Shown: positions 27,754-52,634, numbered from the stretch's first letter. The stretch is DNA of 64,000 nucleotides from Candidatus Multivoraceae bacterium (GCA_965223385.1 CBDCWR010000007.1:2413803-2477802), one strand, 5' to 3'. The notes: generated by a model from the sequence alone, not told the origin. Program-made: numbers and translations.

Positions 27754-27873
27754 GGCTGCTTTCGGCTCGCGGAGGGTTTGGGAACGGTCTCGCAGGGCAC
27801 ATCGCTCGCCTCGATGCTACAGGTCGAGAGGCGCGCTCGTCGGGCTATCGTGTGAGCCCACGGGAGGTGTGCG

Positions 27874-29568
27874 ATGAGTGCGAACCGCAGGGCCCTGACG
27901 ATCTTCCAGATCACGCCTTCGATCGACGGTGCCGACGTGTCGAGCTTCGACCAGGTCGTGCAGGCCTCCGCTCTCACCGACCCTCAGCTGCAGACGACGG
28001 AGCTCCCGGCGGGCTTCGACTTCGACGGCCGGCTGTATGTGATCGCCCCGGCCCCCGAGGAGCCGCGCTGGGGGGCGTTCCTGCGCGAGGGTTTCGGCGA
28101 CACGTTCAACCTGTCCGCCACGGCGACCAACCGCGCACTGCTCGTGATCCGTTTTCGCTACTACAACGCCGACCGCTACTTCGCGGTTGCGTTCGGCGCG
28201 GGCCGCCACCTGATGCGTCGTGACGCCTACGTGCGCTCGTTCGGGCTGAAGGCGGCGCTCAACCTGATTTACGAAGACGACGTCCTCGACGGCAGCGCGT
28301 CGAGCGATCGCGTGCGCCAGGTCGATTCGCGGACCGTCGCGGGTAACACGTTCCGGACGCGGCGCCAGGCGAACCGCGACACCACCTTCGAGCAGTTCGG
28401 CTTGGACACCGAGCGCGATCTGCTGAGCACGGTCACCGGGGAGCCGAGTGATCGGACCGAGCTGGGCTCCCGCGTCTTTGGTGCCGATCACGTCGGCGTC
28501 AATCTGCCGATCGACTTCTCCGGCCTCGTCGGCCTCTGCAAGAGGCTCTGGCGGGCGGGGCGTGCCGACGACTACGAGACGCACTTCAGCTGGATCGACA
28601 ACCTGTCGGCGATCGCGGAGCCCGCGCGCCTCGAGGCGCTGCGCTCCGCGGTGGTGCAGCAGCTGCGCGATGGTGCCGTGGGCGCCTTCGAACTGGCACC
28701 ACCGGAACTGGTCGACTTCGACGCGATCGAGACCTTCCGGATCGAGGTCGGCGCCAACGACGTCTCGGTGGCCGACCTCACTCTCAGCGCGTACCTCGCA
28801 CTGTTCGACGCTGGCGGACTCGCGGCGCTCACCTGGGACCGCATGAAGTCGCACCGTGTCGCCGCGCTGTCGGCCCAAGGTGAGCTCCTCCACAGGTGGC
28901 CCGTCTCCGACTGCCTGTTCGGCGAGCTGGACGACGACGGCGAGACCGTGCTGCTCGACGCGGCCGAGTTCTTCGCCGTCGCCGCCGACTTTCTGGCCGA
29001 CCTCGACGCGTTCGTCGCGGCGATCCCGGAGTCCGACGTCGACCTTCCCGACTCACGCATCGACGCGAACGGCCGGGAGATCAGCGAGGGGGTCTACAAC
29101 GTGGAGGCAGCGCAACACCTTCCCACGCATCTGCTGCTCGACAAGCGCACCGTCAGGGTGGCACCCAACACGAGCTCGATCGAGATCTGTGACGTGCTCA
29201 CGACGGACCGCAAGTTCGTGCACGTGAAGCGCAAGCTGGGCTCCGCGTCGCTGAGCCATCTCTTCTCGCAGGGCTACGTGTCGGGCGACCTGTTCGTGAC
29301 CAGCCACGAGTACCGCACGGCCGTTGCCGCCGAGATTGCAGCTGCCGAGGCAGACAAGGGCTCCGGGCCGATCTTCACGAACGCGCTCGACTTCCAGGCC
29401 CCCGACCCGGCTGCGATCGAAGTGGTCTACGCGGTGGTGGCCAACTGGAACGGCGACAGCGTGGTCGACCGCCTGCCGTTCTTCTCGAAGGTCAACCTGC
29501 GCCGCCACGCCACCGACCTGAGACGCCTCGGCTACGAGGTGACGTTCAAGCGCATCGACATTGCGTGA
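27874..29568 (+). CDS. DUF6119 / TIGR04141-like sporadically distributed protein (function unknown)
   Basis: ATG at 27874 has a GGGAGGTG RBS. The 564-aa product has a C-terminal region KFVHVKRKLGSASLSHLFSQGYVSGDLF that resembles, from memory, the TIGR04141 family. It abuts the left end of the low-GC island. Family assignment is tentative. Confidence 0.55.
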   Translation: MSANRRALTIFQITPSIDGADVSSFDQVVQASALTDPQLQTTELPAGFDFDGRLYVIAPAPEEPRWGAFLREGFGDTFNLSATATNRALLVIRFRYYNADRYFAVAFGAGRHLMRRDAYVRSFGLKAALNLIYEDDVLDGSASSDRVRQVDSRTVAGNTFRTRRQANRDTTFEQFGLDTERDLLSTVTGEPSDRTELGSRVFGADHVGVNLPIDFSGLVGLCKRLWRAGRADDYETHFSWIDNLSAIAEPARLEALRSAVVQQLRDGAVGAFELAPPELVDFDAIETFRIEVGANDVSVADLTLSAYLALFDAGGLAALTWDRMKSHRVAALSAQGELLHRWPVSDCLFGELDDDGETVLLDAAEFFAVAADFLADLDAFVAAIPESDVDLPDSRIDANGREISEGVYNVEAAQHLPTHLLLDKRTVRVAPNTSSIEICDVLTTDRKFVHVKRKLGSASLSHLFSQGYVSGDLFVTSHEYRTAVAAEIAAAEADKGSGPIFTNALDFQAPDPAAIEVVYAVVANWNGDSVVDRLPFFSKVNLRRHATDLRRLGYEVTFKRIDIA

Positions 29569-29784
29569 GGACGGGGTTCGGTTGGTCAAGATGCGCCGAG
29601 GCGCTCGTAGCGGCGAGGTCCGCGGGGGGCTGACCTAGCGACTCGAGTCGGTAGCGCGGAGGATTACGGAACCGCGTCCGTCTGGAGGCGAAAGAGCAAC
29701 GCTCCGTTCGCGCATCGACGACGTCTCGGCGCATCGGGCTCCGGCCTTTCTCCGACCGCCCAGCCCCATTGAGGGAGAATCAAG

Positions 29785-30036
29785 GTGTCATTTCAAGAAC
29801 TCTATGTGCGACTGAAGAGGACTCTTGGGCAACTGACGGGCCGGGACTGGCGAGAGGTCTTCGCACACCAGAACCTCAGCGAGGACCTTGGGTTCAGCGG
29901 CTCTGGCAAGCGTGCCCTTGCCTCCGACCTCAACCAGGAGTTCGCCGCGGAAGAGTTGCAGCTGACACCTGACGAAACGGGAGCCGCGGAGACGGTTCGG
30001 GACCTTGCCCGGCTCATTCAAGAGGAGCTTGGCTAG
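29785..30036 (+). CDS. Small hypothetical protein (83 aa), weakly acyl-carrier-protein-like
   Basis: GTG start with GAGGGAG 7 nt upstream. SEDLGFSGSGKRALASDL...TVRDLARLIQEEL loosely resembles an ACP 4-helix bundle but lacks the DSL phosphopantetheine serine motif. Its stop is 2 nt before the next gene. Confidence 0.45.
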   Translation: MSFQELYVRLKRTLGQLTGRDWREVFAHQNLSEDLGFSGSGKRALASDLNQEFAAEELQLTPDETGAAETVRDLARLIQEELG

Positions 30037-30038
30037 GT

Positions 30039-31229
30039 TTGGCCATGGACCTTCTACGAACAGGGCTCCTTCTCTCCTTGGCTTTTGCCGCAGCGAGTGC
30101 CGCAAGAGCTGCAGATCTCGCTGATGTCCGCGCCTGTGATCAGGATGGCAGTGGCCTGGTCGAGGAGGACGAGCTGCGCTTCTGCCTTTTGAGCGTTCTC
30201 GAGCCCGAGGCCGCGGACCTCGATACGAACAAAGATGGAGCGATCTCTGCGAAAGAAGCTCGGGTCTACTGGGAGCCCGATCTGCTCGACCTAAGAGAGC
30301 GCTACGGTCCGCCACCGTACACGGTGAAACAGCTAGCTGACTTCTTCCCTCTCGAGGGCGAGTTGTCGCTTGGCGGAGTCTTGATCCGGAGGAGCTATCA
30401 GCAGGTCACGCTCAGTGAGCCGGCGAAGTCCTTCAAGAAGGCCGAAGGGGCGCTGTTCTCTTTCTCGGACGACCAGGCCAACGACGTGGAGTCGTGGCAG
30501 GCAAAGGGTGCCGTTATCGGCGTGCTCAAACTTCGTGAGAAGTCAGACAAGGCGCTCACAGCGATTGGTTTCGTTCCAAGCCTAGAGTTCGAAAGGAACG
30601 GAGTAGATGGCCCGGACGAAACGCAGGCCGCCGGTGACTCAGGAGAGAGTCCGGATCCTCCTGAGGACGCTCAAGAGGAAGTCGACCGACTCGTTCTCCG
30701 GGCAGGCTTCGACTTCGAGGTCATCGGGAAAGGCCCGGGTCTGCAGAACTTTCGCATCTTTGTGGCGCACGCGACGGACTTCGACTTCGATAGCGGAGTC
30801 AACGCGATTCAGCTGCAGTGGGAACCCACTCACAACCAGTGGGGGCTTGGGGTGTTCCGACCGGTTGGAGGGATCAGACTGGACTACCGCCTGCGCTTTC
30901 TCGTTCACGCTGAGCTTGGGGAGATTGGTGAGGCTGGCGAGAAGCTGGCGTTGGAGGAAGACGACACGTTTTCCCGATTGGGACCGGAGGTCCAACTCGA
31001 GCTTCAGCCGAGTGGCTTCAGAAGGCTCACGCTGAAAGCCCAGTGGAGAAACTTCTATCGCGTGGGCGGGGACGGCCCAGACCACGTCGAGATGTTCATC
31101 GCCGGTGCCGCTCTCTCACTTGACCGAGACGGCCACTTCTCCCTTGAAGCGGAGTACCAGAACGGGAGGGCCGAGTTGACCCTCGAGGACACAGACCTGC
31201 GAAAGGTCGGTCTGGCGATCAAGTTCTGA
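30039..31229 (+). CDS. Secreted EF-hand calcium-binding protein (two canonical EF loops) with a large uncharacterised C-terminal domain
   Basis: Signal peptide (MAMDLLRTGLLLSLAFAAASAARA), then DQDGSGLVEEDE and DTNKDGAISAKE, both perfect 12-residue EF-hand loops. The roughly 300-aa C-terminal domain is unknown. TTG at 30039 or ATG at 30045. Confidence 0.65.
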   Translation: MAMDLLRTGLLLSLAFAAASAARAADLADVRACDQDGSGLVEEDELRFCLLSVLEPEAADLDTNKDGAISAKEARVYWEPDLLDLRERYGPPPYTVKQLADFFPLEGELSLGGVLIRRSYQQVTLSEPAKSFKKAEGALFSFSDDQANDVESWQAKGAVIGVLKLREKSDKALTAIGFVPSLEFERNGVDGPDETQAAGDSGESPDPPEDAQEEVDRLVLRAGFDFEVIGKGPGLQNFRIFVAHATDFDFDSGVNAIQLQWEPTHNQWGLGVFRPVGGIRLDYRLRFLVHAELGEIGEAGEKLALEEDDTFSRLGPEVQLELQPSGFRRLTLKAQWRNFYRVGGDGPDHVEMFIAGAALSLDRDGHFSLEAEYQNGRAELTLEDTDLRKVGLAIKF

Positions 31230-31660
31230 GAAGACCGCTTCGGTCCGCCGTCTGGACGGTGCCTAAATGACAGTGAAGGAACGTACGTCCTGGTCCGCGC
31301 CTCAGCGCCGACCTTCTCGGCGAGTCATGTCCTTCCTTCTTGCGGTCAAATCGGGCGTTGGCGCCATCTCGAGATCCTCCTGGAAGACTCACGCTGGCTT
31401 TCGGCTCGGACGCGAGGATCACGCAGGCCGACGGAGCGTTTCCCGGCCTTTCGGTTGGGTCGACTCAGGAGCGGGTCTGGCGCCTTATCCGGCCAGCAGC
31501 CTCATGTAAGTTCGTACTACGGCACGAAGGAGACTCGTCCAGCGGGTGGGCGCCGCTTTCGGCATCGCTCCTCAGACCTCGATGCAGACGGGGGTTCTGC
31601 GGACCGTGAGATCCGAGTCCTGGATCTGCTGACAGACCTCCTCTCCTGGCCCTTGCGAAA

Positions 31661-31710
31661 TGGAGCCGATGAGCGGACTTGAACCGCTGACCTGCTGATT
31701 ACGAATCAGT
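31661..31710 (-). other. tRNA-Thr(CGU)-derived 3' half (anticodon arm to CCA), probable integrase att-core remnant, not a functional tRNA
   Basis: The minus strand reads CTGATTCGTAATCAG-CAGGTC-AGCGGTTCAAGTCCGCT-CATCGGCT-CCA, with a UUCGUAA anticodon loop, T-arm, acceptor 3' strand and CCA. No matching 5' acceptor or D-arm follows. A P4-type int N-terminus starts 125 bp away. Confidence 0.55.
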
Positions 31711-31835
31711 GATCGTCTGTTTGTGGGCCTTTGCGCGTGTTTGCGAACCCGCGTTGCTGCTGAATTCTAGGGGAAGCATGGGGTGTGCTCTATGTCGCGG
31801 TTTGCGTGTCGTGGATGGTACAGTGATGGTACGGT

Positions 31836-32231
31836 ATGCGAGGGAGAATCACCAAGAAGGCTGTCGATGGATTGGCTCCGCGAATGGGTGCCGATGGTGC
31901 CCTTCGTGCTGAGCGGTTGTGGGATACGGATGTCACTGGCTTTGGGTGCCTGGTGACGAAGTCCGGGCACAAGAGCTACATCTTTCAGTACCGAACGCGG
32001 CAGCAGGCAAGCAGGACGCCCAAGCGGCTGACGATTGGGGCGCATGGCGAGCTCACCCCGGATGAAGCGCGCACCATTGCTCGAGAACTCCTGTTCAAGG
32101 TCCGCTCCGGAGAGGATCCGGCTCTTGAGTGGAGAAGGGTCAAAGGTGAGACGTTCGGAGACCTCGCGGATCACTTCATGCGCACGTACCTGCCGGCGAA
32201 GAAGCGGCCTCCGAGGGCATCCACCAGAAGT
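31836..32231 (+). pseudogene. P4-type tyrosine integrase, N-terminal (DUF4102 arm-binding) fragment truncated by IS insertion
   Basis: ITKKAVDGLAPRMGADGALRAERLWDTDVTGFGCLVTKSGHKSYIFQYR...GELTPDEARTIARELLFKVRSGEDP is a typical arm-DNA-binding domain. The ORF reads through into the IS terminal repeat at about 32231. No catalytic domain lies downstream. Confidence 0.65.
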
Positions 32232-32260
32232 GAATCGCTCCGAGTTTCCCGGAGACCTTT

Positions 32261-33495
<1,235 letters not shown>

Positions 33496-33649
33496 GACTC
33501 CGATTCTCCCAAGGAATGGAGTCTCCGGGATTCCCGGTGCGGTTCAGTAGTGATTCTGCGCCATCTCGATACCAACGTTGAGCGCATGCTTGGGAGAGTG
33601 CCGCGACACAGAGAGCTGCGTGAGTTAATCAGGACTTTCATCGAGACTG

Positions 33650-34105
33650 GTGGCGCACCTCTCGGTTGATCACCCGGCCGGGGAGGACTTCGTGAGTCTG
33701 AAAGTAGTTGAGCCGTCCGAGAATCTCCATCGCGCTGTGGCTAATGTCACAAGGAGACTCAACGAAATGGGCTACGAGGGTCCAACGCCACGCGACGCGA
33801 CTGGAGTGGTCATCGTTGGGCGCGAGGTTGTCGGTGCGTTTTGTCTCAGCGACTTCACGGCCCCGCCGGGCGCGACGAGACTGAAGTGGATGGGCTCCAC
33901 AGAAACGGCAGAACGGAACAAACTCAGGGTTGGTACCTTCATCGTCCGGCACGCCGTGGCCGAAGCTAGAGCTGATGGGTTCGAAGAGATCCTCCTCTCG
34001 GTACGAGGGACCAACGAGCGCGCCATTCGCCTATACACGAGGGAGGGCTTCCGCCTCACCGGGAAAGGCAACGAGCAAGAGCTGGAAATGCGCCGTACGC
34101 TCTAG
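33650..34105 (+). CDS. GNAT-family N-acetyltransferase
   Basis: A 151-aa product with GTNERAIRLYTREGFRLTG (GNAT motif A/B region). GTG start. Confidence 0.65.
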   Translation: MAHLSVDHPAGEDFVSLKVVEPSENLHRAVANVTRRLNEMGYEGPTPRDATGVVIVGREVVGAFCLSDFTAPPGATRLKWMGSTETAERNKLRVGTFIVRHAVAEARADGFEEILLSVRGTNERAIRLYTREGFRLTGKGNEQELEMRRTL

Positions 34106-34173
34106 GCGTCCCGTCCGAGGATCCCGATTGCTGCCCTCATTCGTACAGGTCGATGATGATCTTTGATGAGCCC

Positions 34174-35898
34174 CTAGAGGTTCCCGAGCACGGTAGCCAT
34201 GGCTCGTTTCTCGGCCTCCTGCTGCTCGAATTCGCCGGAGTGCTGCATGATCGCCGCTCGCTCTTCGAACTCCTCTCGAAGGTCCGGAGACAGCTGATCG
34301 CCTAGCTGGCGAGCCGACAGAGGGTCGGGCGCCTCGAGTTGCAGCGGTGGGCGATCGGTCTCCCTAGATATCTCTTGTCCCCTAGTAGTACCTAGGGACT
34401 CCGAATGGTCGCAAGGGTCGCAAGAACCCTGACGAGAGCGGGGTTCTGAGCCGTTCAAGGTCGCAAGGTCTTGCGGGTTGGCGGTGTTGGCCAAGTCGCA
34501 AGGTCGCAAGGAGCTATACGTGCATGGGGAGGATTGGGGGTCGAGGCCGCGTTCGTGAGCAACTCGGAGAACGGCAGCAATCGAGCGGCGCTTCAGGCTA
34601 GCGTTGTTGTGCCAGACGGACTCTGAAGGAATCCCTAGCCGCTTGAGGGTAGTTCCAAGCTTCGCAATGCTGATAGGCCTGCCTTCCTTGTAGTTGCCCC
34701 AGCGCTCGGGGGCTTCGCCGATCATGTGCTGCTGCAGCTCTTTGGTACTGAAGGAGTCGCTCGGGTGTGCCTCCGCGAAAGAAAGGGCCGCCTCGAGAAT
34801 CTCCGTCTCGACGCTCTTGATTGGGCCTTGGCTTCGCTCCTGTAGCCAGCTGAGGAATGGGTGTCGTTCGCCAACAGCATCAGTCCTTTGCCGTAGCTCC
34901 TTGGCCAGCACCGTCATGGCGTTTCGTCCACCCGGTAGGTCCGTGAGTTTCTCGAGGTGCGGCCCAAGACCGTGAAATGGCCTGTTCCGCACGTACTCGG
35001 CAGCCCATTCGCCAAACGGCCTCCGAATCAAGTGGATCGCCTCCTCGAGTTGCTCTTGGGTGGGTGAGCGTTCTTCGACGAGGTCGGCCAGGTCCTCTCC
35101 GCCGCTACGGGCAGCAAAGAACTCGACAACGAGGACCGATTGCGCGACGTCCTCTAGAACTCGACCAGCGCCGAGAGCGTAGTCTCGCCCCACTCGATCG
35201 GCGTCAGGCCAGATCAGAACCCGGCTCGCTCCATCGAACGACGCTAGATGACGCTCATCGAGGTCTGTGCCGTTCGGAGCAGTTGTGGCGTTGAGCCCCA
35301 GTTTGACGGCAGCATCTGCCACTTTGCAGCCTTCCACCAAGTGAACATCTTCCCGGCGCTCAACTGCTCGACGTATCCGCTCTTCGCGATAGAGCTTGGG
35401 AGACAGATCGTCTAGCGCTGCGCGCCATTTGGGGCCGTCCTGACGCTGCCACATGAACCTCTTCTTGCCGCTCTCCAGGTCGTAGCGGAGAAGCCGTAGT
35501 GCTGGTCCTTCAATGGAGTCAAAGGCGTACTCGGTGACCCTAGCGTACGAGGTTGATGGCGGTGTGAGACCGTAGCAGGAGGCGAGGGCCACGATCGCAG
35601 CGAACCGTTCCTTTCCTACGGGTTCAACCCCGTAGCCAGCAGCAAGCTCAAGCCAGGTCCCTCCAGGCCGGTCGGGCAGAACGAGCGGCCCTAGCTTTCC
35701 GGGCTTGTAGATGATCCGGTCGGCGTGACGATGAAGGCGCCAGGGCTGATTGGGTGGAAGCTTGGTCGCTTGCCACTTGCCGTCCTTCCGGCGCTTCCAG
35801 CCGAGGTCCATGCCGATCACGCCAGCGATCGCGTTTGGATCTCGACCGATCGCCGGAAGTACGAACTGGTCGTAGAAGCTACCTGCTGAGGTGAGCAT
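34174..35898 (-). CDS. Primase-like replication protein with Toprim domain (integrative-element/satellite-type)
   Basis: About 574 aa from MLTSAGSFYD. SRVLIWPDADRVGRDYALGAG is a Toprim DxD motif. It sits in an int-alpA-primase arrangement. The in-frame ORF extends to 35985. Confidence 0.6.
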   Translation of the reverse strand: MLTSAGSFYDQFVLPAIGRDPNAIAGVIGMDLGWKRRKDGKWQATKLPPNQPWRLHRHADRIIYKPGKLGPLVLPDRPGGTWLELAAGYGVEPVGKERFAAIVALASCYGLTPPSTSYARVTEYAFDSIEGPALRLLRYDLESGKKRFMWQRQDGPKWRAALDDLSPKLYREERIRRAVERREDVHLVEGCKVADAAVKLGLNATTAPNGTDLDERHLASFDGASRVLIWPDADRVGRDYALGAGRVLEDVAQSVLVVEFFAARSGGEDLADLVEERSPTQEQLEEAIHLIRRPFGEWAAEYVRNRPFHGLGPHLEKLTDLPGGRNAMTVLAKELRQRTDAVGERHPFLSWLQERSQGPIKSVETEILEAALSFAEAHPSDSFSTKELQQHMIGEAPERWGNYKEGRPISIAKLGTTLKRLGIPSESVWHNNASLKRRSIAAVLRVAHERGLDPQSSPCTYSSLRPCDLANTANPQDLATLNGSEPRSRQGSCDPCDHSESLGTTRGQEISRETDRPPLQLEAPDPLSARQLGDQLSPDLREEFEERAAIMQHSGEFEQQEAEKRAMATVLGNL

Positions 35899-36130
35899 CG
35901 TCGTCGTGCCTCGCGACCGTCTCGGGCTCGTCGATGGCTGGCAGCGACTCGAGGTATTCCTCGATCTCGCGTCGAAGCCAGGCACTTACTCTTGGGCCGA
36001 GTCTTCTAGGAGCGGGGAAGGTGCCGTTCTTGACCCATCGATAGAGAGTTGGGACAGAGACGCCGAGAAGTTTGGCTGCCGCGGAGGGCCTCAACATCAA
36101 CGAGAGGTCTGCGGAATCGTGAGTCATCAA
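35879..36130 (-). CDS. AlpA-family phage regulatory protein / excisionase (HTH)
   Basis: MLRPSAAAKLLGVSVPTLYRWVKNGTFPAPRRLGPRVSAWLRREIEEYL has the AlpA/Xis MerR-like HTH signature. The likely true start is the internal Met at 36097. Confidence 0.7.
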   Translation of the reverse strand: MMTHDSADLSLMLRPSAAAKLLGVSVPTLYRWVKNGTFPAPRRLGPRVSAWLRREIEEYLESLPAIDEPETVARHDDDAHLSR

Positions 36131-36421
36131 AGTCTCCTGGCGGTGGGGCTGGCGCCGTCACCACCGCTCTCCGTTGGACGTGTCTTTCGACCACGCGACG
36201 ACGCACAACCTATTGTCGTAGGCCATGGAAGTACTTAGCGATGCATCACGTCTCAAGACGCTTCGGAGTGCCTTCGGAGGTCGCTGAGTGCGGGGCGGCT
36301 GCGAGTGGAGCCCGGAAGGGGCTTCTCGAGTCGGGATGAGCTTTCTGAACGACTCCAGTCGGTCAGAACCTGATCGCCGTGCCGCGAAAAGAGGGCTCAA
36401 GGCGATCTTGGGCTTGCGGCG

Positions 36422-37636
36422 CTAGGCTCCTTGGCTGAACGGGACCACAGACGCAAGCCCTGAGCCGCTAGCGATACCCCTGACGCGCTCGCCCCAAAGC
36501 TCGAGGGCCGCCCTCTTCTCGTCGTCGTAGGCGTGACGGTTGTAGATGGCAGTTATCGAATGGTCCGCGTGATTGAGGATGCGGCTGATGATCGGTGGCT
36601 CGACGCCAAGCCGAGCCATGTGCGTGGCCGCGGTCCGTCGAAAGTCATGGGGTGTCCAGTCACGTGTGCCACTTCGCTGGCGTAGACGGCTAGTCGCTCG
36701 AGTGAGACGGCCGATAGGGCGACCAGGGTTTACGGGACTCTCGAACACGAACTCGTTGTGGCCTGTCGTGTCCTCCAGTCGGAGGATCGACTCCATGGCT
36801 AGCTCCGACAATGGAACGCGGCTCGCTCTAGCACTCTTCGTGTCAGCCGCGGGAATTGTCCACCAGGCGCCCTCGATGTCTACCCATCGCATCGTCCGGA
36901 CCTCACCAGGCCGTTGGGCGGTGAGGAGCAGGACGCGGTACATCGCCGCGGTGACGGGCTGCTCGTCGTTGAGGGCGCTCCAGACAGCTTCGATCTCCTC
37001 CTCGGAAAGTCGGCGCTCCTTTGGAGTCTCCTTCGCTGGCCTGTCCACCAGCAAGGCGGGGTTCGTGTCCGCGTAGCCTCGCTGTAGGCCGAAGTTGAAC
37101 ATCTTCGAGATGAGCGCTCGAAGCCGATTTGCCGCTACGGGTGCTCTCTTGGCCTTCTCATCGAGGAGGCGAGCGACCTCGACTCGCCCGATTTCGGCCA
37201 CGGGGATGCCTGACCACGCAGGCAGTAAGTCGGACCGGAGATAGCGTTCGTCTTCGCGCCAGGACGATTCGCGCTTTTCTCTGCGGGCGTAGTTGTCGAG
37301 GTAGTCGGAGGCAAGAGCCTCGAAGGTGCGGCCAGCGGCAAGCGCAGCGGCGCGCTGAGCGCTCTTCTGCTCCGCTACGGGGTCGAGGCCATCGGCGACG
37401 TCCTGGCGGAGCCTGCGGGCCCGTTTGCGAGCGTCTGAGAGGCTCAGGTCAGGGTAGTTGCCGAGCTTCTTGCGACGCTGCCCGCCATCAGGTCGTCGGA
37501 AACGGAGCATGAACGCCTTGGAGCCGTCGCAATTGACTCGGAGGACCAGGCCTGGAACTTCGCCGTCTCGGATCTCATAGCGCCGTGTTCGAGGCAGGAG
37601 GGATCGAATAGTCCTGTCCTGGAGGATTGTGGCCAT
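36422..37636 (-). CDS. Tyrosine-type site-specific integrase (P4-like, DUF4102 N-terminus), apparently intact
   Basis: Starts at MATILQDRTIRSLLPRTRRYEIRDGEVPGLVLRV. The catalytic region has HDFRRTAATHMARLG...ILNHADHSITAIYNRH (R..H..R..Y). The in-frame ORF extends to 37810. Confidence 0.85.
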   Translation of the reverse strand: MATILQDRTIRSLLPRTRRYEIRDGEVPGLVLRVNCDGSKAFMLRFRRPDGGQRRKKLGNYPDLSLSDARKRARRLRQDVADGLDPVAEQKSAQRAAALAAGRTFEALASDYLDNYARREKRESSWREDERYLRSDLLPAWSGIPVAEIGRVEVARLLDEKAKRAPVAANRLRALISKMFNFGLQRGYADTNPALLVDRPAKETPKERRLSEEEIEAVWSALNDEQPVTAAMYRVLLLTAQRPGEVRTMRWVDIEGAWWTIPAADTKSARASRVPLSELAMESILRLEDTTGHNEFVFESPVNPGRPIGRLTRATSRLRQRSGTRDWTPHDFRRTAATHMARLGVEPPIISRILNHADHSITAIYNRHAYDDEKRAALELWGERVRGIASGSGLASVVPFSQGA

Positions 37637-37820
37637 GTTTGCGAATGCCTCCTCCGCGACTCGGGACACGTGGGGGACGCGCCGACATCGCGATTTGGTG
37701 AGGCAGCATGCTACATCATGGAGTCTCTTGAGACCAGCTGTAACCCATACAAAATGTATTGTTTGGGCGCCATGACTCAGTTTGAACCCTTCCGTGCGGG
37801 ACTCGTTCAAGAGAGCGGGA

Positions 37821-37871
37821 CACTGACTGAAAATCAGGGTGTCGGTGGTTCAAATCCGCCTCTGGGCACCA
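37821..37871 (+). other. tRNA-Phe(GAA)-like 3' half (anticodon arm to CCA), att-core remnant, not an intact tRNA
   Basis: ACTGA-CTGAAAA-TCAGG GTGTC GGTGG-TTCAAAT-CCGCC TCTGGGC-A-CCA is canonical tRNA-Phe from the anticodon loop onward. No 5' acceptor (GCCCAGA) or D-arm lies upstream. It is 185 bp from the int start codon. Confidence 0.5.
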
Positions 37872-37980
37872 GCAACTCAAGGGTTTCGAGCGACCGAAAA
37901 CACGCTGCGTCTCGTAGGTCACCGATAGGTCACCTCGACGCGTCGTTTGAGAGCCGGGGGCAGACGAGAAGGGGAGGGAC

Positions 37981-39123
37981 GTGAACGCTGAGCGACTGCA
38001 TGCGTTGGCTCTGGTGCTGAGGGAACACCTGAAAGAGCTGAACCTGCCCGCCTCACTGGCTGCACTCGAGTCCGAACTAAGTACGCTGGTCTCAAGTCCC
38101 TCCGACGAGACTGCGCAGCTTCAGGTAAGTCTGAAGCGGAACGAGCTGATCGCCGGCTTGGAGTCTTCGCTTCGGGACGAAGGTCCCTTGTTTGCCGATG
38201 GCATTCAAGAGCTTGGAGTGGATGGCCTGGTAGGACCAGGACTTGCCGGTGCGCTTCGTAGCGCGCTTGCGGGCGAGGATCTCACTCCAGCGGCGGCACA
38301 GGCGGGGGTTGAGCGGCTGCGTTCAGAGGTCGCAATGCTCGAAGGGCACCTCAAGAGCTTGGTAAATGCTCTTGAGAGTTTCCATGTTGGCCACGAGTTG
38401 CTCGGCCCTGGGGAAGCTGAACTCGCCGTCGTAATCCCACGGTCAGCCGTGAAGAACGAGGTGGGAGAGCTCGCAGATGATCTCGAGGGGCTGGACAAGA
38501 TCTTCGGCTGCCTGGCTGAGGTTGCGACTGGCCAGAGGGCCGACCTCAAGATCCGGACGATCTCCTCGTCCGATCTCACCTTCCTCCTGGAGGTGCTTCC
38601 GGAGGTTGGTGCGGCTATTGCCTTCTCGGTGCGGTGGCTGGTGCAGACGTACAAGGACGTCTTGGAGATCAAGAAGAACCGCCAAGATCTGGCGAACAAG
38701 GAGATCCCTCAGGAGGTGCTGGACGACCTCGATGCGCACATTCAGGAGCGGGTCGATGCTGCGATAGCGGATGGCGTTGAGGAACTGTTCAAGGAATTCG
38801 ACAAGCGCCGGCCGGCGGGCAGAAAGGAAGAGCTAAGGAACGAGCTCCGACGCTGGCTCGGAGAGCTGATGAAGCGCATCGACCACGGCTACCATGTCGA
38901 AGTTCGAGCTGCGCCGAGAGAGGACGGAGAGGAGGAAGAGGAGAGGGACGAGTCCGCTGAACACCTCGAGAAGATCTCCGAGCTAGCGGCTCAGACCCCC
39001 TACGTCGCCATCGCTGGGAGGCCCGTTCTCTATCTGCCGGGACCCGACGATCAAGAGGACGCTGATGGCGCCGCGGACGAAAGTCCAGACGAGCCCGACG
39101 AGAGCGAAGATTCCGAACCCTAG
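37981..39123 (+). CDS. Hypothetical protein (380 aa, predicted alpha-helical, acidic C-terminal tail), orphan island cargo
   Basis: GTG start with a GGGGAGGG RBS. No recognisable motif. The C-terminus is DEPDESEDSEP. Its stop TAG is the first triplet of a 36-bp direct repeat. Confidence 0.6.
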   Translation: MNAERLHALALVLREHLKELNLPASLAALESELSTLVSSPSDETAQLQVSLKRNELIAGLESSLRDEGPLFADGIQELGVDGLVGPGLAGALRSALAGEDLTPAAAQAGVERLRSEVAMLEGHLKSLVNALESFHVGHELLGPGEAELAVVIPRSAVKNEVGELADDLEGLDKIFGCLAEVATGQRADLKIRTISSSDLTFLLEVLPEVGAAIAFSVRWLVQTYKDVLEIKKNRQDLANKEIPQEVLDDLDAHIQERVDAAIADGVEELFKEFDKRRPAGRKEELRNELRRWLGELMKRIDHGYHVEVRAAPREDGEEEEERDESAEHLEKISELAAQTPYVAIAGRPVLYLPGPDDQEDADGAADESPDEPDESEDSEP

Positions 39124-39156
39124 ACACCGCCCGCACGATCGGCCCAAGCGACCGGG
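39121..39156. repeat. 36-bp direct repeat, copy 1 (TAGACACCGCCCGCACGATCGGCCCAAGCGACCGGG)
   Basis: 35/36 identical to copy 2 at 40427..40462. It starts at the stop codon of gene 37981..39123. Confidence 0.6.
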
Positions 39157-39448
39157 CACGTAGCTAGGCGGCATCCTCTTCTGCGAGCGAAGCCCAGAAG
39201 AAGCCTCGCGGCGCGCGCTTGATCTTGGCCAGCACCTCGACCGCGTCCCCGAGGGCCTGCTACTCGTCCGGGGTCGCGATCGCGACCCTCTGGCCGTGGC
39301 GCGGCGCCCTCGGCGACTCCGCCATGCGTTGCATCGCAGGACGACGGTGAGCGCTAGCATTGGGCTACGCAAGCGCGGCGAAAGCCGCGGCTGCTCGGGG
39401 CGCAGGCGCTTGGCCGGGGGCCAGACGAGATAAGGAGGAACCCAAACG

Positions 39449-40363
39449 ATGGTCAGTAGCCGACGACTGGCCGTGACCGTACTGATCGTCGTGACGCTGG
39501 GCCAGCCCAGTGCCGGCTGGTCCAGCGAGGCTGCGTTTCCAACGGGAAGCCGAGGAGCTTGGACGCGGAACAGCGGCGAAGAGCGTCTGAACGTCACCGA
39601 GTCTCACATTGTCCACCACCACAACGGCCTGCTCAAAGTCCGGAAGCTGCTCAGCATCGACCGGCTGCAGGCCAAGCTCCGATTCAACGGTACCGAGTCT
39701 TGGGTTGCCTTCTATGTCCAAGATGAGCATCTGTACTTCGCGGATCGGAGCTTCGAGAGAGTGTCGCCGATACCTGACGATCTCCAAGTCCTTACTCCAT
39801 TCCAAATCCCTCAGCCGTCCGCCGCTGCCGCCAGCGACATCGAGGCCGCACAGGGGCTTCTGAGGCTCATGATCCGGAATGACCAACGGCTCCGAAAGGA
39901 GCGGCGTCCGCCAGACGAGCTGCGGCGCGCAGGCAAGAGGCATGCCGAAAAACTAAAAGGGATCCTAAGAAACCAGGGCTGGATCGACATCCACAGATTC
40001 GGCCCTGAGGCAGCGATGAACGCGTTTCTGGTCGTTCAGCACAGCAATGACCTGCCGCTGATGCTCTCCGCACTGCCGCTGATCAAGAGTGATCTCGAGA
40101 ATCTCGGAGGTCGAGAGGCAGGGGACATGTTTGCGCTGCTCTTCGATCGCATAAGAGTGCGAACAGGCGAGCTTCAACGCTACGGCAGTCAGCTCAACGA
40201 AGACGCCACAGGTCCATACGTTCTCCCCTTAGAAGATCCGTGCAGCATTGACGACCTTCGCCAAGCTATCGGCCTTGAGCCTCTGCAGGAATACGTAGCG
40301 ATCGCATCGAAGGAGTTCTATGCAGGACGCCCAGTGCGCCTTCTCACCCCCTGCGAGCATTAG
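39449..40363 (+). CDS. Hypothetical secreted protein (304 aa), orphan island cargo
   Basis: A perfect AAGGAGG RBS lies 9 nt upstream of the ATG. Signal peptide-like MVSSRRLAVTVLIVVTLGQPSAG. No recognisable catalytic motif. The gene is bracketed by the 36-bp direct repeats. Confidence 0.6.
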   Translation: MVSSRRLAVTVLIVVTLGQPSAGWSSEAAFPTGSRGAWTRNSGEERLNVTESHIVHHHNGLLKVRKLLSIDRLQAKLRFNGTESWVAFYVQDEHLYFADRSFERVSPIPDDLQVLTPFQIPQPSAAAASDIEAAQGLLRLMIRNDQRLRKERRPPDELRRAGKRHAEKLKGILRNQGWIDIHRFGPEAAMNAFLVVQHSNDLPLMLSALPLIKSDLENLGGREAGDMFALLFDRIRVRTGELQRYGSQLNEDATGPYVLPLEDPCSIDDLRQAIGLEPLQEYVAIASKEFYAGRPVRLLTPCEH

Positions 40364-40426
40364 CTCTGGAGAATACTCGGTGGCCACCTAGATCGCCCCT
40401 TATCGGCGAGCCTCCAAGACCGCCTG

Positions 40427-40462
40427 TAGACACCGCCCGCACCATCGGCCCAAGCGACCGGG
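40427..40462. repeat. 36-bp direct repeat, copy 2 (TAGACACCGCCCGCACCATCGGCCCAAGCGACCGGG)
   Basis: One mismatch to copy 1. It lies immediately upstream of the ATG at 40469. Confidence 0.6.
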
Positions 40463-40468
40463 GGTGCG

Positions 40469-41083
40469 ATGGCGGCTCACAACTCGAGGTTCCGGGTGCA
40501 GTCCTACACGGGCGACTCGGAGTGGCTCCAGCCGGTGGAGGTTTTCCTCTTCCGCGGCTACCAGAAGGTGGGGCAGACGCGGCACCTCGGCCCGAATCGC
40601 TACTGCCCGACCACCCTGGCCACGCTCCAGACGAACGCGGACCGGCTCTTCCTCTCGCCTGAGACGCGCACGCTGGCAGCCTCTGAAGGCTGCCCGAGCT
40701 CGCCTCTGCTCCTCTGGGTCGAGAGCGCCTTTGACTCAGCTCTGAGCGGCTTCAGCGGCGCTGTGGTGCCTCTTCTCGAGCAGGGCGTGGGCGACGACGA
40801 CCCGAGGCTTGCGCTGGCGCTCAGGAACGTGTCAGGGCGCCTGAAGACAGCCTCCGAGGAGGAGAAGCAGGCCGTCATGGACTGGCTTGAGGACTCAGGC
40901 ATGCGCGAGCAGGTGCCCGAGACGTTGAAGACCTCCCCGAGGTGCTTTTGGGCGTCGCTGGCGGTGGCCGAAGAGGCCGCCACTAGAGAGCGCTACCCCG
41001 TCGCCTCGGGATCCCAGTCGCGAGCCCAGCCACCATTTCGGATCTCCTTGGCTAGTTCGAGGATCTCCGGGTGCTTTGCGTAG
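40469..41083 (+). CDS. Hypothetical protein (204 aa), uncertain
   Basis: ATG follows a GGGGG stretch. The central part is protein-like (EEEKQAVMDWLEDSGMREQVPETLK). The 3' 90 nt overlap the convergent TPR gene, so the true end is uncertain. Confidence 0.35.
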   Translation: MAAHNSRFRVQSYTGDSEWLQPVEVFLFRGYQKVGQTRHLGPNRYCPTTLATLQTNADRLFLSPETRTLAASEGCPSSPLLLWVESAFDSALSGFSGAVVPLLEQGVGDDDPRLALALRNVSGRLKTASEEEKQAVMDWLEDSGMREQVPETLKTSPRCFWASLAVAEEAATRERYPVASGSQSRAQPPFRISLASSRISGCFA

Positions 41084-41511
41084 GGGCAAGGTGGATCCAA
41101 GCTCGCAAGCGCACGCTCCGGCTGGTTTAGCTCAGCGAGAACCCGGGCGCGTCCGAAGTGCGCTTCGTGGTCACCTCCCAGGTCGACGGCACGCTCGAAG
41201 TAGCTGAGCGCCAGCTCCAGCTGCTCGTCCCAGACGTCGTACCAGTACCCGAGCTCGTTGTGTGGCTCGGGGTCGTCGGGCGCAATTTCGAGAGCACGCT
41301 CGTAGCTTTGACGCGCATCCTCCAGTTCCCGACGAGGGTCATCGTCCCCCAACAGGATCAGATGGCCACGCAGGAGCCAGAGCTCCATGGACCTCGGGAA
41401 GGCGTCCAGCGCCTGATCCGCTACCGCAACCAGGGCACCTGGGACGTCTCCCTCTTCAGGTATCTGCTGGCGGATCCGCTCCAACCAGGCTTCCTCGGAT
41501 ACTGGAGCCAC
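40993..41511 (-). CDS. TPR-repeat protein
   Basis: A 172-aa product with TPR-like helical repeats (ARQSYERALEIAPDDPEPHNELGYWY, ALSYFERAVDLGGDHEAHFGRARVL). Confidence 0.55.
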   Translation of the reverse strand: MAPVSEEAWLERIRQQIPEEGDVPGALVAVADQALDAFPRSMELWLLRGHLILLGDDDPRRELEDARQSYERALEIAPDDPEPHNELGYWYDVWDEQLELALSYFERAVDLGGDHEAHFGRARVLAELNQPERALASLDPPCPYAKHPEILELAKEIRNGGWARDWDPEATG

Positions 41512-41787
41512 CCGTTTCTCCCTTCAGTTCCTGATACCTAATGCAGCAACACTGCCAGTCCACCGGATCCGACGGCCGGAAATCCGGAACGCTCCTGTCG
41601 CAGCAGCGAACCGCCGCTCGCCTCCGGGACGAACGTCAGAGACAGGCTCGAACGCGGCCGTCTCTGAGCTGACGTGCTCCCCGTTTCGTACCACGGACTT
41701 CTGGACATTCGGGCAAGTTGGCTACCTGCGGCTGCGGTGCGCGGGTCGAGTCCAGAAACACACCAAAGGCGTCAGGATTGGTTCACG

Positions 41788-42042
41788 ATGAGAGCAATTG
41801 CCGGAGGCCTTCTGCTTGCAGCATGGATCGCGCTCCCGACCGTGGTGCAGTCTCAGTCCGTCTTCTGTGACAACTTCGCTCTCGCCCCGTTGCATCCCCA
41901 ACCAGCAATTCAGGGGAGCTCGCTCTCCGTGAGGGTCTACGGAAGTTGGCCGACGACCAACGTCCCTGATCTCGTCGGAGCATCTGTCACCGGGAACACG
42001 ATCCGAGTGCAACTGGAAGGGCCTACACACTCGCAATCCTGA
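41788..42042 (+). CDS. Small hypothetical secreted protein (84 aa)
   Basis: Signal peptide MRAIAGGLLLAAWIALPTVVQS. No similarity recognised. Low confidence. Confidence 0.3.
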   Translation: MRAIAGGLLLAAWIALPTVVQSQSVFCDNFALAPLHPQPAIQGSSLSVRVYGSWPTTNVPDLVGASVTGNTIRVQLEGPTHSQS

Positions 42043-42343
42043 TTTCACTTGTCGCGACTCTTGGTGTCCATCATCTCCGCTAGCGACGCCACGGATCGGA
42101 GGCTGATCTCGGACCGGCCTGCAGGAGCGGGGGCGCAGCTTCGAGGGAGTCTTTCCGACGGAACGGGGGAGCGCTCATCGCCATCGCGAGACGGGCACCC
42201 GAGTTCGTCCGGCGTCAGGCATACTTCACCCGCGAAGCGATCTCGGCGCATACGTCGCCGTGTTGGACGAGGGCCGCGAAGCGACGCGGCTCATCCAGGG
42301 GAGGCGTCTCCTGCAACGGGTCGCTCCTGCTTGAGTTGACGAA

Positions 42344-43660
42344 ATGAGAGTCCTCCTCCTCTTGGCTGTGTTTCTCGGCTCGCTGTCGTGTGCGACCCGG
42401 GTCCCGGTTGCCGAGCAGCTCGGTCTTGCCGTACCGACGCGCGTGTTCCTCATCTCCATCGACACGCTGCGCGCCGACCACCTCGGCTCCTACGGGTACG
42501 AGCGGGACACGAGCCCTCACCTCGACGTGTTCCGTCAAGAAGCCGTGCTGTTTCGCGAGGTCATCTCGCACGCTCCGTCGACCCTTCCCGCCCATGCGTC
42601 GATTCTGACCTCGCTGCTGCCGCAACATCATCTGGCCTCCGTCGCCGAGGACACGGCGCTGGCGGACGAGGCGCTGACGCTTGCAGAGGTGTTTTCTGCA
42701 GCCGGGTTCAAGACCGTCGCCGTGACGGGTGGCGGCCAGCTCGACCCCGCCTACGGTGTGGACCAGGGGTTCGACACGTACCGGATTCCCAAGAACAACC
42801 AGCAGTTCCGGACGGTTGCGCGGCAGACATCCAACTGGCTCCGGAAAAACCGAGACCGCGCGTTCCTGTTCCTGCACACCTACCAGGTACATGCGCCCTA
42901 CGTGTCACCTTCGGAGCTCCTCGACGTTCTGGGCAACGACTACACCGGCAGCTTGCCCGACCAGATCGACACCTCGATCCTCGACGCCATCAACGGAGGC
43001 GAGCTTGCAATCGACGACGAGGACCTCGCGCACATCGTCCGCACATACGACGCCGACATCCGGCGCATGGACCAGCAGCTCGCGCGGTTCTTCGGGTGGC
43101 TGAAGGGTGAGGGCCTCTACGACGACAGCCTCATCGTGATCACGTCGGACCATGGCGAAGAGTTCGGGGAACGAGGTCAGGTCGGCCGACACTCCTACAC
43201 GCTCCACGATGAGCTCCTTCACGTGCCCCTGCTCATCCGCTTCCCCGACGGGGCTTTTGGTGGCTCCGAGGTCTCGTCCCAGGTGCGCGGCATCGACATC
43301 GCACCGACGATCCTCGAGGCCCTTCGTCTTCCTGTGCCGGAGGAGTTCCAGGGGACATCACTTCTGGGACATCTCGAGCAGACGAGACCCTCACTTCCTG
43401 CTGTGAGCAGTCTGGACAAGTTCACGGCGCGGATGTGGTCGCTCCGAGACGGCGGTTGGAAGCTCTATGGCCCAGCGCTTTACGACCTGGCCAACGACCC
43501 CGGCGAGCTGGAGGACGTGGCGATGACGCAGCGCGAACGGTACGAGGACCTCCGCCGCACGCTCCGCGAGCAGGTTCAGGCTCGGGAGCCGCTGCCCCTG
43601 AATCAGGTGACCCCCGACGAACAGCTCATTGAGCAGCTCAAGGCGCTCGGCTACCTGTAG
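42344..43660 (+). CDS. Sulfatase-like hydrolase/transferase (alkaline-phosphatase superfamily), secreted
   Basis: A 438-aa product with a signal peptide and LISIDTLRADHLGSYGY (sulfatase N-terminal metal-site region) plus ITSDHGEEFGERG (sulfatase signature II-like). Confidence 0.75.
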   Translation: MRVLLLLAVFLGSLSCATRVPVAEQLGLAVPTRVFLISIDTLRADHLGSYGYERDTSPHLDVFRQEAVLFREVISHAPSTLPAHASILTSLLPQHHLASVAEDTALADEALTLAEVFSAAGFKTVAVTGGGQLDPAYGVDQGFDTYRIPKNNQQFRTVARQTSNWLRKNRDRAFLFLHTYQVHAPYVSPSELLDVLGNDYTGSLPDQIDTSILDAINGGELAIDDEDLAHIVRTYDADIRRMDQQLARFFGWLKGEGLYDDSLIVITSDHGEEFGERGQVGRHSYTLHDELLHVPLLIRFPDGAFGGSEVSSQVRGIDIAPTILEALRLPVPEEFQGTSLLGHLEQTRPSLPAVSSLDKFTARMWSLRDGGWKLYGPALYDLANDPGELEDVAMTQRERYEDLRRTLREQVQAREPLPLNQVTPDEQLIEQLKALGYL

Positions 43661-43756
43661 TACACCCGAAGCTCCTTTGGCTGGGCCTCTGCCGGGCAGC
43701 TCCGGAGGCTGAGCTAGGGAACTGGGCGGTCGCTCCGTGGCACGACGGCCTCGACT

Positions 43757-44197
43757 TCAGGTCGCCGGCTCGCCCTCTTCCACCTGGGCGCGGGCTCGAT
43801 GTACGGTCACCACGTTACGGCCCGCCTCGCGTCGGTAGTCGATCGAGTCGACCCACTGCCGCACGAGGTGAACGCCGAGGCCGCCGGGCCGACGCTCTTC
43901 CACGGGTGCGTCGAGCTCGGTCGGTGGTTCGAGGCAGAGCGGGTCGAAGGCCTCCGCGCCGTCCGAGACCACGAGACCCCACCGGACCTCGTCCAGCATG
44001 AAGGTCACCTCGATCTCGTCGCGATCACTCAAGCCGCCGTGCCGGATCACGTTCGACACGAGCTCGTCGAGAACCAGCTCCATGGCGAAGCGGTCCTGGG
44101 CCACGAGGCCCTGCTCGGCGCAGAGCCGGTCGAGCGTGGCCTCGAATCGGCCGAGAACCGGTGGAGCCGCCGGAACGGTCACGCGGAAGCTGTCCAT
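43757..44197 (-). CDS. Anti-sigma regulatory factor, RsbW-like Ser/Thr kinase (HATPase_c)
   Basis: A 146-aa product with ELVSNVIRHG...RRPGGLGVHLVRQWVDSIDY, GHKL-ATPase motifs typical of RsbW/SpoIIAB. Confidence 0.75.
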   Translation of the reverse strand: MDSFRVTVPAAPPVLGRFEATLDRLCAEQGLVAQDRFAMELVLDELVSNVIRHGGLSDRDEIEVTFMLDEVRWGLVVSDGAEAFDPLCLEPPTELDAPVEERRPGGLGVHLVRQWVDSIDYRREAGRNVVTVHRARAQVEEGEPAT

Positions 44198-44207
44198 CGG
44201 ACCGAGA

Positions 44208-44564
44208 CTAACGGGAGGCGATCGCGCGAAGCGCTTCCTCGGCCCGCTGGCACTCCGACTGGATGTCGAGGATCCTGGTGAAGCCCGAGACGTTCAGCAC
44301 GTCCAGCACGCCGCCCTGGGGCCCGAAGAAGGCCACGTTGCCTCCCTCGAGGCGCGCTCTCTTGACCAGCCACAGAAACACACGCAGGCCGGCGCTGCTC
44401 AGGAACTCCAGGCCCGAGAGGTCGAGCGCCATCACGTTGTGCCCCTGGCGCAGCAGTGCTTCCAGCTCGGTCTCCGCCCGCTTCGACGTGTCGGTGTCGA
44501 GACGTCCTCCGAGCTCGAGCACCAGCCCTTCTTCGGCCTGGAGTGTGTTCATCTTCAATGACAT
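44208..44564 (-). CDS. STAS-domain anti-sigma-factor antagonist
   Basis: A 118-aa product from MSLKMN, with DLSGLEFLSSAGLRVFL, the SpoIIAA/RsbV motif with the phosphorylatable Ser. The rest of the 316-aa ORF is spurious. Confidence 0.75.
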   Translation of the reverse strand: MSLKMNTLQAEEGLVLELGGRLDTDTSKRAETELEALLRQGHNVMALDLSGLEFLSSAGLRVFLWLVKRARLEGGNVAFFGPQGGVLDVLNVSGFTRILDIQSECQRAEEALRAIASR

Positions 44565-45772: not shown

Positions 45773-46174
45773 CCCGTCATTCCCCGACTGCCTCGCTTCG
45801 ATCGACCCGCGCCACGACGCGTCGCCGACGTGCCTGGCTTCCGCCAGCTCTGCCCCGGTTGCGTGCGCCGAACGGTCCGATGTGTCTCCGATGACCGGGA
45901 GCGGCCTTCGGAGAGCCCAGCTTGCCGAGCCGTGAAGGGAATGAAACTCAGACGGCGATGAGGGAGGCCGTAGGAATCGGCAGACAGGCCCTGTCGGAAG
46001 AGGACGACACCTGCTCTGATGCGGGCGAGGTCATCGCCCCGGAGTCGGAGCGACCTCCGCTGCTCACTCTCGCTCCAGTATCCTGCTTGCGAGGAGGGAG
46101 CCCATGTGTGGCTCAGCAAAAGGACCCCGCTCGCCGGCCACGGAACAGTTTCGACCCGGCGGACCTGGGTGCGT

Positions 46175-46753: not shown

Positions 46754-46847
46754 CACGCGGAGGCCAAGGACAAAACGAAAGACGGCGCCCGGATCACTCC
46801 GGGCGCCGCCGCAACCAAGCTCCGCGGAGAGCGGAGCCTCACGGTCT

Positions 46848-48089: not shown

Positions 48090-48099
48090 CTCATGCCTC

Positions 48100-50263: not shown

Positions 50264-50284
50264 AGCCGCAGCGCGCCCGCACGC

Positions 50285-50917: not shown

Positions 50918-51125
50918 GTCGGACCTCCGATCTCTCGGCGCTTCCGAGACGGTGCGGAGGTCCATCCACCGTTGCCTCGACGGTGCGCGCGAAAGGAAAG
51001 AAACTGAGCGTGTTGGCCGTTGGTACGCCGCAGGCAGGCCGACGTTGCCTGTGACGAGCGCGCCCGTGACGGCTGGGAGGCGACGTGGGACCGGTGGGGG
51101 TCCTCGCGCGACCGGCGGTCGCGCC

Positions 51126-52493: not shown

Positions 52494-52634
52494 CTCATTT
52501 CACGACAAATGGAGTCGGCCTCCGTCATGCGGGGCCCGGACACACTCTCTCAGAGCCGGAGGGTGGTGGGGTGGGTGTCGATAGACTCGGCTTTCGTCGT
52601 GCACCCGAGATCGCAGCGCGACGGAGGGGGAAGA

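Follow-up and report, generated by a model that had tools for sequence, protein, structure and literature searches.

The subject of this report is a block of lower-GC DNA in a Candidatus Multivoraceae bacterium that carries two P4-type integrase genes, int_T and int_P, each beside the 3' part of a different tRNA gene. We analyzed a stretch of 64,000 nucleotides (GCA_965223385.1 CBDCWR010000007.1:2413803-2477802), called the window below; all positions are counted from its first letter. The block is arranged on both sides of an insertion sequence (IS) of the IS3 family, and its features, from left to right, are these:

29570-31660, plus strand: outer flank of the tRNA-Thr piece (X_left), foreign; GC 0.61, GC at third codon positions (GC3) 0.70
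29785-30036: ACP-like open reading frame (ORF) of 83 amino acids (aa), in X_left
30039-31229: protein of 396 aa ending in Phe, in X_left, with weak EF-hand motif matches
31661-31709, minus strand: 3' piece of tRNA-Thr(CGU), 49 nt, tRNA positions 28-76 including CCA
31814-31835, plus strand: tandem 11-nt arm-type repeats GATGGTACAGT / GATGGTACGGT, abutting the start of int_T; the arm motif is also written GTACCATCACNGTACCATC
31836-32230, plus strand: int_T, stub of a P4-type integrase, 131 codons, Arm-DNA-bind_3 only, cut by IS3
32231-33546, minus strand: IS3-family element, 1316 bp, with OrfA at 33175-33495, OrfB at 32261-33175 and a frameshift pseudoknot at 33101-33217
33547-33669, plus strand: 40-codon tail of a gene cut by the right end of IS3, overlapping the GNAT start by 20 nt
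33650-34105, plus strand: GNAT acetyltransferase, cargo of the Phe island (Acetyltransf_1, E=7e-6; PHROG acetyltransferase)
34174-35898, minus strand: Toprim primase, DnaG-like, 574 aa when read from Met30 of its ORF; serves the Phe island as replication gene
34407-34510, plus strand: candidate iterons within the 3' end of the primase gene: (G/A)GTCGCAAG, five copies on one strand
35879-36130, minus strand: AlpA-type HTH regulator/excisionase gene (HTH_17, 1.6e-10; Phage_AlpA, 1e-8)
36422-37636, minus strand: int_P, intact P4-type tyrosine integrase, 404 aa, Arm-DNA-bind_3 plus Phage_int_M plus Phage_integrase
37823-37871, plus strand: 3' piece of tRNA-Phe(GAA), 49 nt, tRNA positions 28-76 including CCA
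37872-41667, plus strand: outer flank of the tRNA-Phe piece (X_right), foreign, GC3 0.68-0.72 save for the 204-aa ORF; missing from a relative strain
37915-37934, plus strand: TAGGTCACC twice in tandem, spaced 11 nt, 44-63 nt outside the Phe piece
37981-39123: orphan protein of 380 aa, in X_right
39449-40363: DUF6624 protein (Pfam), in X_right
40469-41083: ORF of 204 aa, in X_right, GC3 0.85
40993-41511, minus strand: TPR protein (Pfam), in X_right

A first-pass annotation, made from the bare sequence, had named an integrase stub, an intact integrase, AlpA, a Toprim primase and an IS3 element at this locus, and domain scans find all of them. int_P has the three domains that define a P4-type integrase; int_T is truncated to the first. 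Residues R242, H330, R333, H356 and Y365 of int_P are invariant across an alignment of 13 relatives, and the enzyme looks catalytically intact; its nearest relative beyond the source genome shares 45% identity. The int_T stub is 56% identical over its 131 aa to the full 410-aa integrase of locus L004/L205, and the alignment ends at IS3. Between int_T and int_P, identity in the N-terminal domain is 28%. Profile matches to the primase are weak but consistent (TIGR01391 dnaG, 2e-6; PHROG DNA primase, 1e-8; Pfam Toprim, 0.0055), and the motifs EGxxD and DxD are present as VEGCKVAD and WPDADRVG. All four exact copies of (G/A)GTCGCAAG in the window fall within the 104 nt at 34407-34510, and these repeats may represent a replication origin of the Phe island.

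Are the two 49-mers true remnants of tRNA genes? Both hold an anticodon stem-loop (CGU and GAA, respectively), variable loop, T arm, 3' acceptor strand and CCA. They were compared with intact genes of other organisms, at viral, metagenome and metagenome-assembled genome (MAG) loci. One degenerate pattern spanning the Thr and Phe 49-mers was scanned over viral and metagenome collections, and a genome scan with the Thr 49-mer merged with an IS3 49-mer gave 12 MAG tRNA-Thr loci. The Thr piece is identical at 49/49 positions to intact tRNA-Thr(CGT) genes called by ARAGORN at L038, L039, L045, L198-L202, L206 and L209, three of them from the viral and metagenome collections and seven more from the MAG scan, where the genomes are labelled Acidobacteriota, Thermoanaerobaculia, Thermodesulfobacteriota, Deltaproteobacteria and Firmicutes-type (Gracilibacteraceae, Syntrophomonadaceae). 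Immediately outside the piece, the base at tRNA position 27 is mismatched. The Phe piece matches seven intact tRNA-Phe(GAA) genes at 48/49 positions, the lone difference being a T for C at index 38. Orphan pieces with the identical start position occur at L004/L205 and L207 (Thr) and at L044 and L071 (Phe). The Rfam tRNA model gives 17-18 bits per piece, under its 29-bit threshold, as expected for half a tRNA. On these matches, which bear out the proposal that the tRNA-like segments correspond to real tRNA 3' ends, we take both pieces to be genuine tRNA 3' parts of the anticodon-centred attachment (att) class.

Each piece turns its truncated 5' end towards the start of an int gene that reads away from it, at a distance of 126 nt (Thr) and 186 nt (Phe). 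This is the arrangement proposed in the first-pass annotation, with coordinates that agree within 1-2 nt. The two pieces are oppositely oriented with their 3' ends outward, and the 6.1 kb between them contain no tRNA gene. At identities of at least 55%, no second copy of either piece was found in the window, the block edges included. ARAGORN and Rfam together leave tRNA-Cys(GCA), at 8640-8721 on the minus strand, as the sole credible tRNA gene in the 64 kb, which upholds the earlier view that the island has no intact tRNA. A long mechanical ORF (6613-9201, minus strand) spans this tRNA-Cys gene. We rejected an ARAGORN call of a 96-nt tRNA-Thr(cgt) at 40607-40702 (minus strand) as a false positive: Rfam does not match it, a T loop is missing and its fold z-score is -0.76. 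The call lies inside the 204-aa ORF and is unlike the Thr piece, with which it shares the anticodon by coincidence.

The layout of integrase and piece recurs among related integrases. The alignment of 13 int_P relatives was used to retrieve 80 viral-contig loci (L218-L297), 43 of which have at least 250 nt of upstream sequence. In 32 of these 43, the strand opposite int carries a tRNA 3' part about 200-320 nt upstream of the gene, and in all 32 non-tRNA sequence replaces the 5' half of the tRNA; in two further relatives the tRNA is whole, divergent in one and co-directional in the other. The same layout is seen with a tRNA-His piece on a metagenome contig of 185 kb (L211/L212), whose integrase is 44% identical, and L004/L205, closest to int_T, shows it with the identical Thr 49-mer. 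The rule read from these layouts is that int sits at the displaced-piece end of the island (attR) and reads into it, which would put the restored tRNA gene at the far end. As a side observation, the pieces upstream of the int_P-type integrases (L218-L297) seem to be of several tRNA types, all starting at the anticodon stem-loop, and target switching within the clade appears frequent.

A junction of this kind could also be an unrecombined site (attP), and the arm-type repeats bear on the distinction. Directly upstream of the L205 integrase we find the tandem motif GTACCATCAC[G/T]GTACCATC (written on the other strand), and the same tandem motif stands again 47-70 nt beyond the middle piece in L207, the expected far-arm place of that island. 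Upstream of int_T, at 31814-31835, the motif has its one occurrence in the window, against 0.01 expected; it was found neither on the outer side of the Thr piece nor elsewhere in the 64 kb. Because the arm motif stands on the int side only, the Thr junction is best read as a recombined attR and not as attP, and the tRNA-proximal end of the Thr island would therefore lie outside the window. No motif common to both sides of the Phe piece was found, and TAGGTCACC is absent on the int_P side; its two copies may have served an older tRNA-Phe island as arm sites, or may form an operator. We regard the Phe piece, too, as a probable attR, less firmly than the Thr piece. The sequence CGGGACAC was considered as an int_P site and rejected, its two copies on the int side being not above chance over the whole window.

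The contig carrying L205 and L207, from Acidobacteria bacterium LB_ACB_1 (QQVD01000048), contains a whole tRNA-Thr(CGT) (L201 166-240) and pieces at L205 670-718 and L207 6808-6856. It thus holds at least two tandem islands, in which one integrase adjoins the whole gene and a different one adjoins the end piece.

How far does the foreign DNA extend? Sliding-window GC is about 0.61 (segments 0.60-0.65) over roughly 29.6-42 kb, against about 0.66-0.69 in host segments. The range over the flanks is 0.64-0.71, and 42-43.7 kb is intermediate at 0.64-0.66. GC3 is 0.65-0.72 for nearly all genes in 29785-42042, the exceptions within the block being IS3 (0.78-0.79) and the 204-aa ORF at 40469-41083. 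The flanking genes, encoding a PQQ dehydrogenase, M19 dipeptidase, FAA hydrolase, glutamate dehydrogenase, PEMT, DUF6119 protein, sulfatase, RsbW-like kinase and SpoIIE phosphatase, have GC3 values of 0.82-0.94. Tetranucleotide correlations with the pooled host, noisy statistics given that the segments are short, are r 0.66-0.82 for island segments versus 0.84-0.91 for host chunks of 2-4 kb. X_left correlates with the rest of the island at r 0.85 and with the host at 0.76; X_left and X_right correlate with each other at 0.80, and each with the host at only 0.71-0.76. The tetranucleotides of IS3 are host-like. A lower-GC interval had been noted in the first-pass annotation, and in the composition profile GC, GC3 and tetranucleotides all depart from the host.

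X_left and X_right do not appear to be native backbone, because their GC3 is island-like and their tetranucleotides are closer to each other than to the host. They are either older island remnants at the same tRNA genes, or parts of a patch that was imported whole from a lower-GC donor.

A search with the SpoIIE-type phosphatase led to a protein of 99% identity, encoded on an ENA contig of 115 kb (ERZ25072999 ctg315800; L213/L216), which represents a relative strain. This contig is collinear with the window at 98% identity from 52788 down to 41667 and then diverges. We place the end of the variable block at 41667, because homology with the relative strain (L213) stops there. Judged by this comparison, the right edge of strain-specific DNA is 41667 and not the 43700 proposed before: the relative shares the DNA from 41667 to 52788, and the sulfatase end (41667-43700), together with an 84-aa ORF, is shared backbone and not island. 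The left edge, 29570, is set by composition alone. The strain-specific foreign block is thus 29570-41667, about 12 kb, and with its two different P4-type integrases, each paired with a different tRNA 3' piece, it is the mosaic of acquired DNA that the first-pass annotation had taken it to be.

Past the junction the relative lacks the TPR, 204-aa, DUF6624, 380-aa and Phe-island genes, and has instead a CdiI_2-like immunity gene followed by three more small genes, among them an orphan Rhs C-terminal module. It also carries an IS3 inside a 1364-aa Rhs/YD-repeat gene, an IS110 element and another transposase (L213 11146-18233; L216 7106-20321). No tRNA was called in the 13 kb past the junction of the relative strain. 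By its contents in the two strains, the locus is a plastic spot and does not resemble a tRNA site left empty.

The IS3 element has 26-nt inverted repeats, OrfA and OrfB with a programmed -1 frameshift (Rfam ALIL pseudoknot, 108 bits) and the domains HTH_Tnp_1 and rve. Its left end cuts int_T after codon 131; on the right it borders on the last 40 codons of an unrelated gene, which is not an integrase and has no family match in profile scans. The flanking tetranucleotides are GAAG and GTAG, so that there is no clean target duplication. The copy in the relative strain is 99.9% identical and has a clean 4-bp duplication, ATAG; exact-protein look-ups with OrfA and OrfB returned only the contig of that strain. 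We rejected a simple insertion of IS3 into int_T: no frame past IS3 resumes the integrase, with or without removal of 4 bp. Because it joins two unrelated genes and lacks a target duplication, the IS3 of the window is best read as the joint of a rearrangement. The first-pass annotation had offered, as one possibility, a scar left by IS3-mediated deletion. The scar itself is supported by the IS3 at the break, the cut in int_T at codon 131 and the missing duplication; these features do not distinguish a deletion from an inversion.

What, then, brought these parts together? A tyrosine integrase that enters a tRNA gene splits it; the island supplies a 3' copy that restores the gene at one end, and the gene's own 3' part comes to lie, displaced, at the opposite end of the island (Hudson, Lau and Williams 2015, PMC4383910). 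In the Islander collection of that study 3760 of 3919 mapped islands have such a 3' piece, and 2083 have an anticodon-centred site (PMC4383910). We consider it likely that the block consists of the far (attR) ends of two tRNA islands that meet head to head, were joined in an IS3-associated rearrangement and are now immobile. The Thr island would have extended to the right from 31710 and the Phe island to the left from 37822. With both pieces as attR and their 3' ends outward, both whole tRNA genes are therefore expected between the pieces, and none is there. The interval holds the cut int_T, IS3, the tail of the unrelated gene and, of the Phe island, the 4.3 kb nearest its integrase (GNAT, primase, AlpA and int_P). 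An IS3-associated rearrangement would have removed, or moved elsewhere, all other parts of the two islands, their tRNA-proximal ends included; most likely two IS3 copies would have recombined, with a deletion or an inversion as the outcome. The Phe remnant should be unable to excise precisely, because only one of the two recombination sites is present. It keeps the apparently functional int_P, AlpA, the primase and the candidate origin; the Thr remnant is dead.

Several points weigh against this interpretation. The evidence on whole tRNAs, on IS3 copies and on a reciprocal junction is confined to the 64-kb window. tRNA-Phe is normally encoded by a single essential gene. A plain deletion would remove it, and would call for a second copy or for a redundant locus that had been imported. 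GC skew is positive in both host flanks, with no sign of a large asymmetric inversion ending here. The flanks of IS3 agree at three of four positions (chance about 0.05), which leaves some probability for a simple insertion plus a separate deletion. For the Phe piece, the attR call draws only on the missing shared motif, and the tandem repeat beyond the piece stands at a typical arm-site position.

The alternative that fares best is in fact a version of the fused-ends interpretation that fixes the place of the fusion. The whole mosaic, or a larger segment with two tRNA genes, would have been imported from a lower-GC donor, and the redundant tRNAs and the island interiors then lost via the resident IS3; the outer flanks would be donor DNA downstream of tRNA-Thr and tRNA-Phe. 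We hold both this import and its reading of the flanks to be possible, on balance doubtful. GC3 is equal (0.65-0.72) in at least four separate segments, and X_left resembles X_right, while IS3 is host-like and common to the relative strain. No essential tRNA-Phe gene need be deleted, and the locus is plastic in the relative strain (Rhs, IS3, IS110, another transposase). On the other side, no donor sequence was found and no entry mechanism is visible at the edges 29570 and 41667, and the comparison of compositions is again one of short segments with noisy statistics. A similarly tentative standing is given to the idea that the IS3 joint is the endpoint of a large inversion between islands at tRNA-Thr and tRNA-Phe, or marks the capture of a foreign segment with both loci.

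Two further readings we consider improbable. The pieces might be unrecombined attP sites, with the outer genes forming the other ends of the same elements and entry by an IS or as a composite element. Composition is indeed uniform across both pieces, and the two copies of TAGGTCACC 44-63 nt beyond the Phe piece lie where far-arm sites lie in L207; yet the conserved Thr arm motif is on the int side only, the repeat beyond the Phe piece has no counterpart on the int side, and there is a single IS3, with no second recombinase or end repeats bounding the 12 kb. Just as unlikely are the two tandem or nested integrations that the first-pass annotation had favored, at native tRNA genes lost later by decay: two integrase-plus-fragment modules do lie within 6 kb and arrays at one tRNA are common (125 tandem arrays are listed in PMC4383910, and LB_ACB_1 has three copies of the Thr 49-mer), but within an array a single tRNA piece recurs in one orientation, whereas here different tRNAs stand opposed over 6.1 kb without a tRNA gene, loss of a native tRNA-Phe is normally lethal, no tRNA lies in the 13 kb next to the shared junction in the relative strain, and the DNA outside the pieces is not host-like.

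We compare the locus, read as the fused far ends of two islands, with known systems. Like the tDNA islands of Islander (Hudson, Lau and Williams 2015, PMC4383910), it combines a tyrosine integrase with a displaced piece from anticodon stem to CCA, foreign composition and cargo genes. It differs from them in that neither piece has a restored tRNA partner in the window, neither island is complete, and two islands of differing tRNA specificity abut head to head across IS3; the combination that defines a complete island, a whole tRNA and a same-orientation piece with the integrase between them, was not found in the 64 kb.

With phage P4 and cryptic elements of the CP4-57 type, known from E. coli, the locus shares an Arm-DNA-bind_3 (DUF4102) integrase, an AlpA-type regulator, a primase and the form of a small element at a tRNA-type gene. 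In CP4-57 the integrase gene lies behind the whole target gene and shares its orientation, whereas here and in most relatives of the clade int is divergent beside the displaced piece. Unlike in P4 and CP4-57, no match to a helicase domain was reported for the primase, a Toprim protein of 574 aa, there are no capsid-redirection or packaging genes, and the integrase is at most 45% identical to anything found. Scans of the island ORFs against Pfam, NCBIfam and PHROGs found none of the redirection or packaging genes that mark P4-like or PICI-like phage satellites, a negative to be read with the truncation of the element, which could have lost them. Pfam scans of the same ORFs found no relaxase or secretion families, so that the relaxase and type IV secretion genes of an integrative conjugative or mobilizable element are likewise missing.

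The IS3 resembles its family in its overlapping frames with an ALIL pseudoknot, rve (DDE) transposase, TG...CA inverted repeats and the 4-bp duplication of the copy in the relative strain; it departs from it in that the window copy bridges two unrelated genes without a duplication.

Further features of the block and its surroundings are recorded here. A non-coding gap of 290 nt (36131-36421) between AlpA and int_P is probably the control region of an AlpA-primase operon. PADLOC, run on the island, found no defence family beyond a weak DnaG-like match to the primase. The 204-aa ORF (40469-41083), with its host-like GC3, overlaps the TPR gene by 90 nt; it is a small insert of host-like DNA, or else no real gene. 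A 36-nt direct repeat, TAGACACCGCCCGCAC[G/C]ATCGGCCCAAGCGACCGGG, occurs at 39121-39156 and 40427-40462 with 97% identity; each copy is directly 3' of a stop codon, the two bracket the DUF6624 gene, and neither was matched in any fetched locus. The pair is possibly a cassette-like or REP-like element. Left of the block, the DUF6119/TIGR04141 gene behaves as a single-gene mobile unit (27862-29568; L214 7680-9386; L215 652-2360): nucleotide homology to relatives of 86% and 73% identity stops exactly at the gene ends and the neighbours are unrelated, those in L215 being NERD, McrBC and type I restriction genes. DUF6119 was tried as a synteny anchor and failed, its contexts in the 86% and 73% relatives being unrelated to that in the window. 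A tblastn comparison of the cargo proteins with the tRNA flanks of relatives gave no matches.

The locus is an ordinary genome scar, in which routine island decay and IS-driven mosaicism meet at a plastic spot. For annotation, its value lies in identifying the tRNA-like 49-mers as displaced att pieces and not genes, the intact int_P as stranded, and the island edge as 41667. The integrase clade offers a reusable rule, by which a divergent tRNA 3' piece some 130-250 nt upstream of int would mark the island end that is far from the whole tRNA, and a conserved arm-site motif serves to separate attR from attP. Should the joint be the endpoint of an inversion, or the trace of a captured segment, then tRNA islands together with a resident IS would have reshaped the chromosome of a poorly sampled high-GC lineage, and a seat at the displaced-fragment end would be the rule for this clade of integrases.

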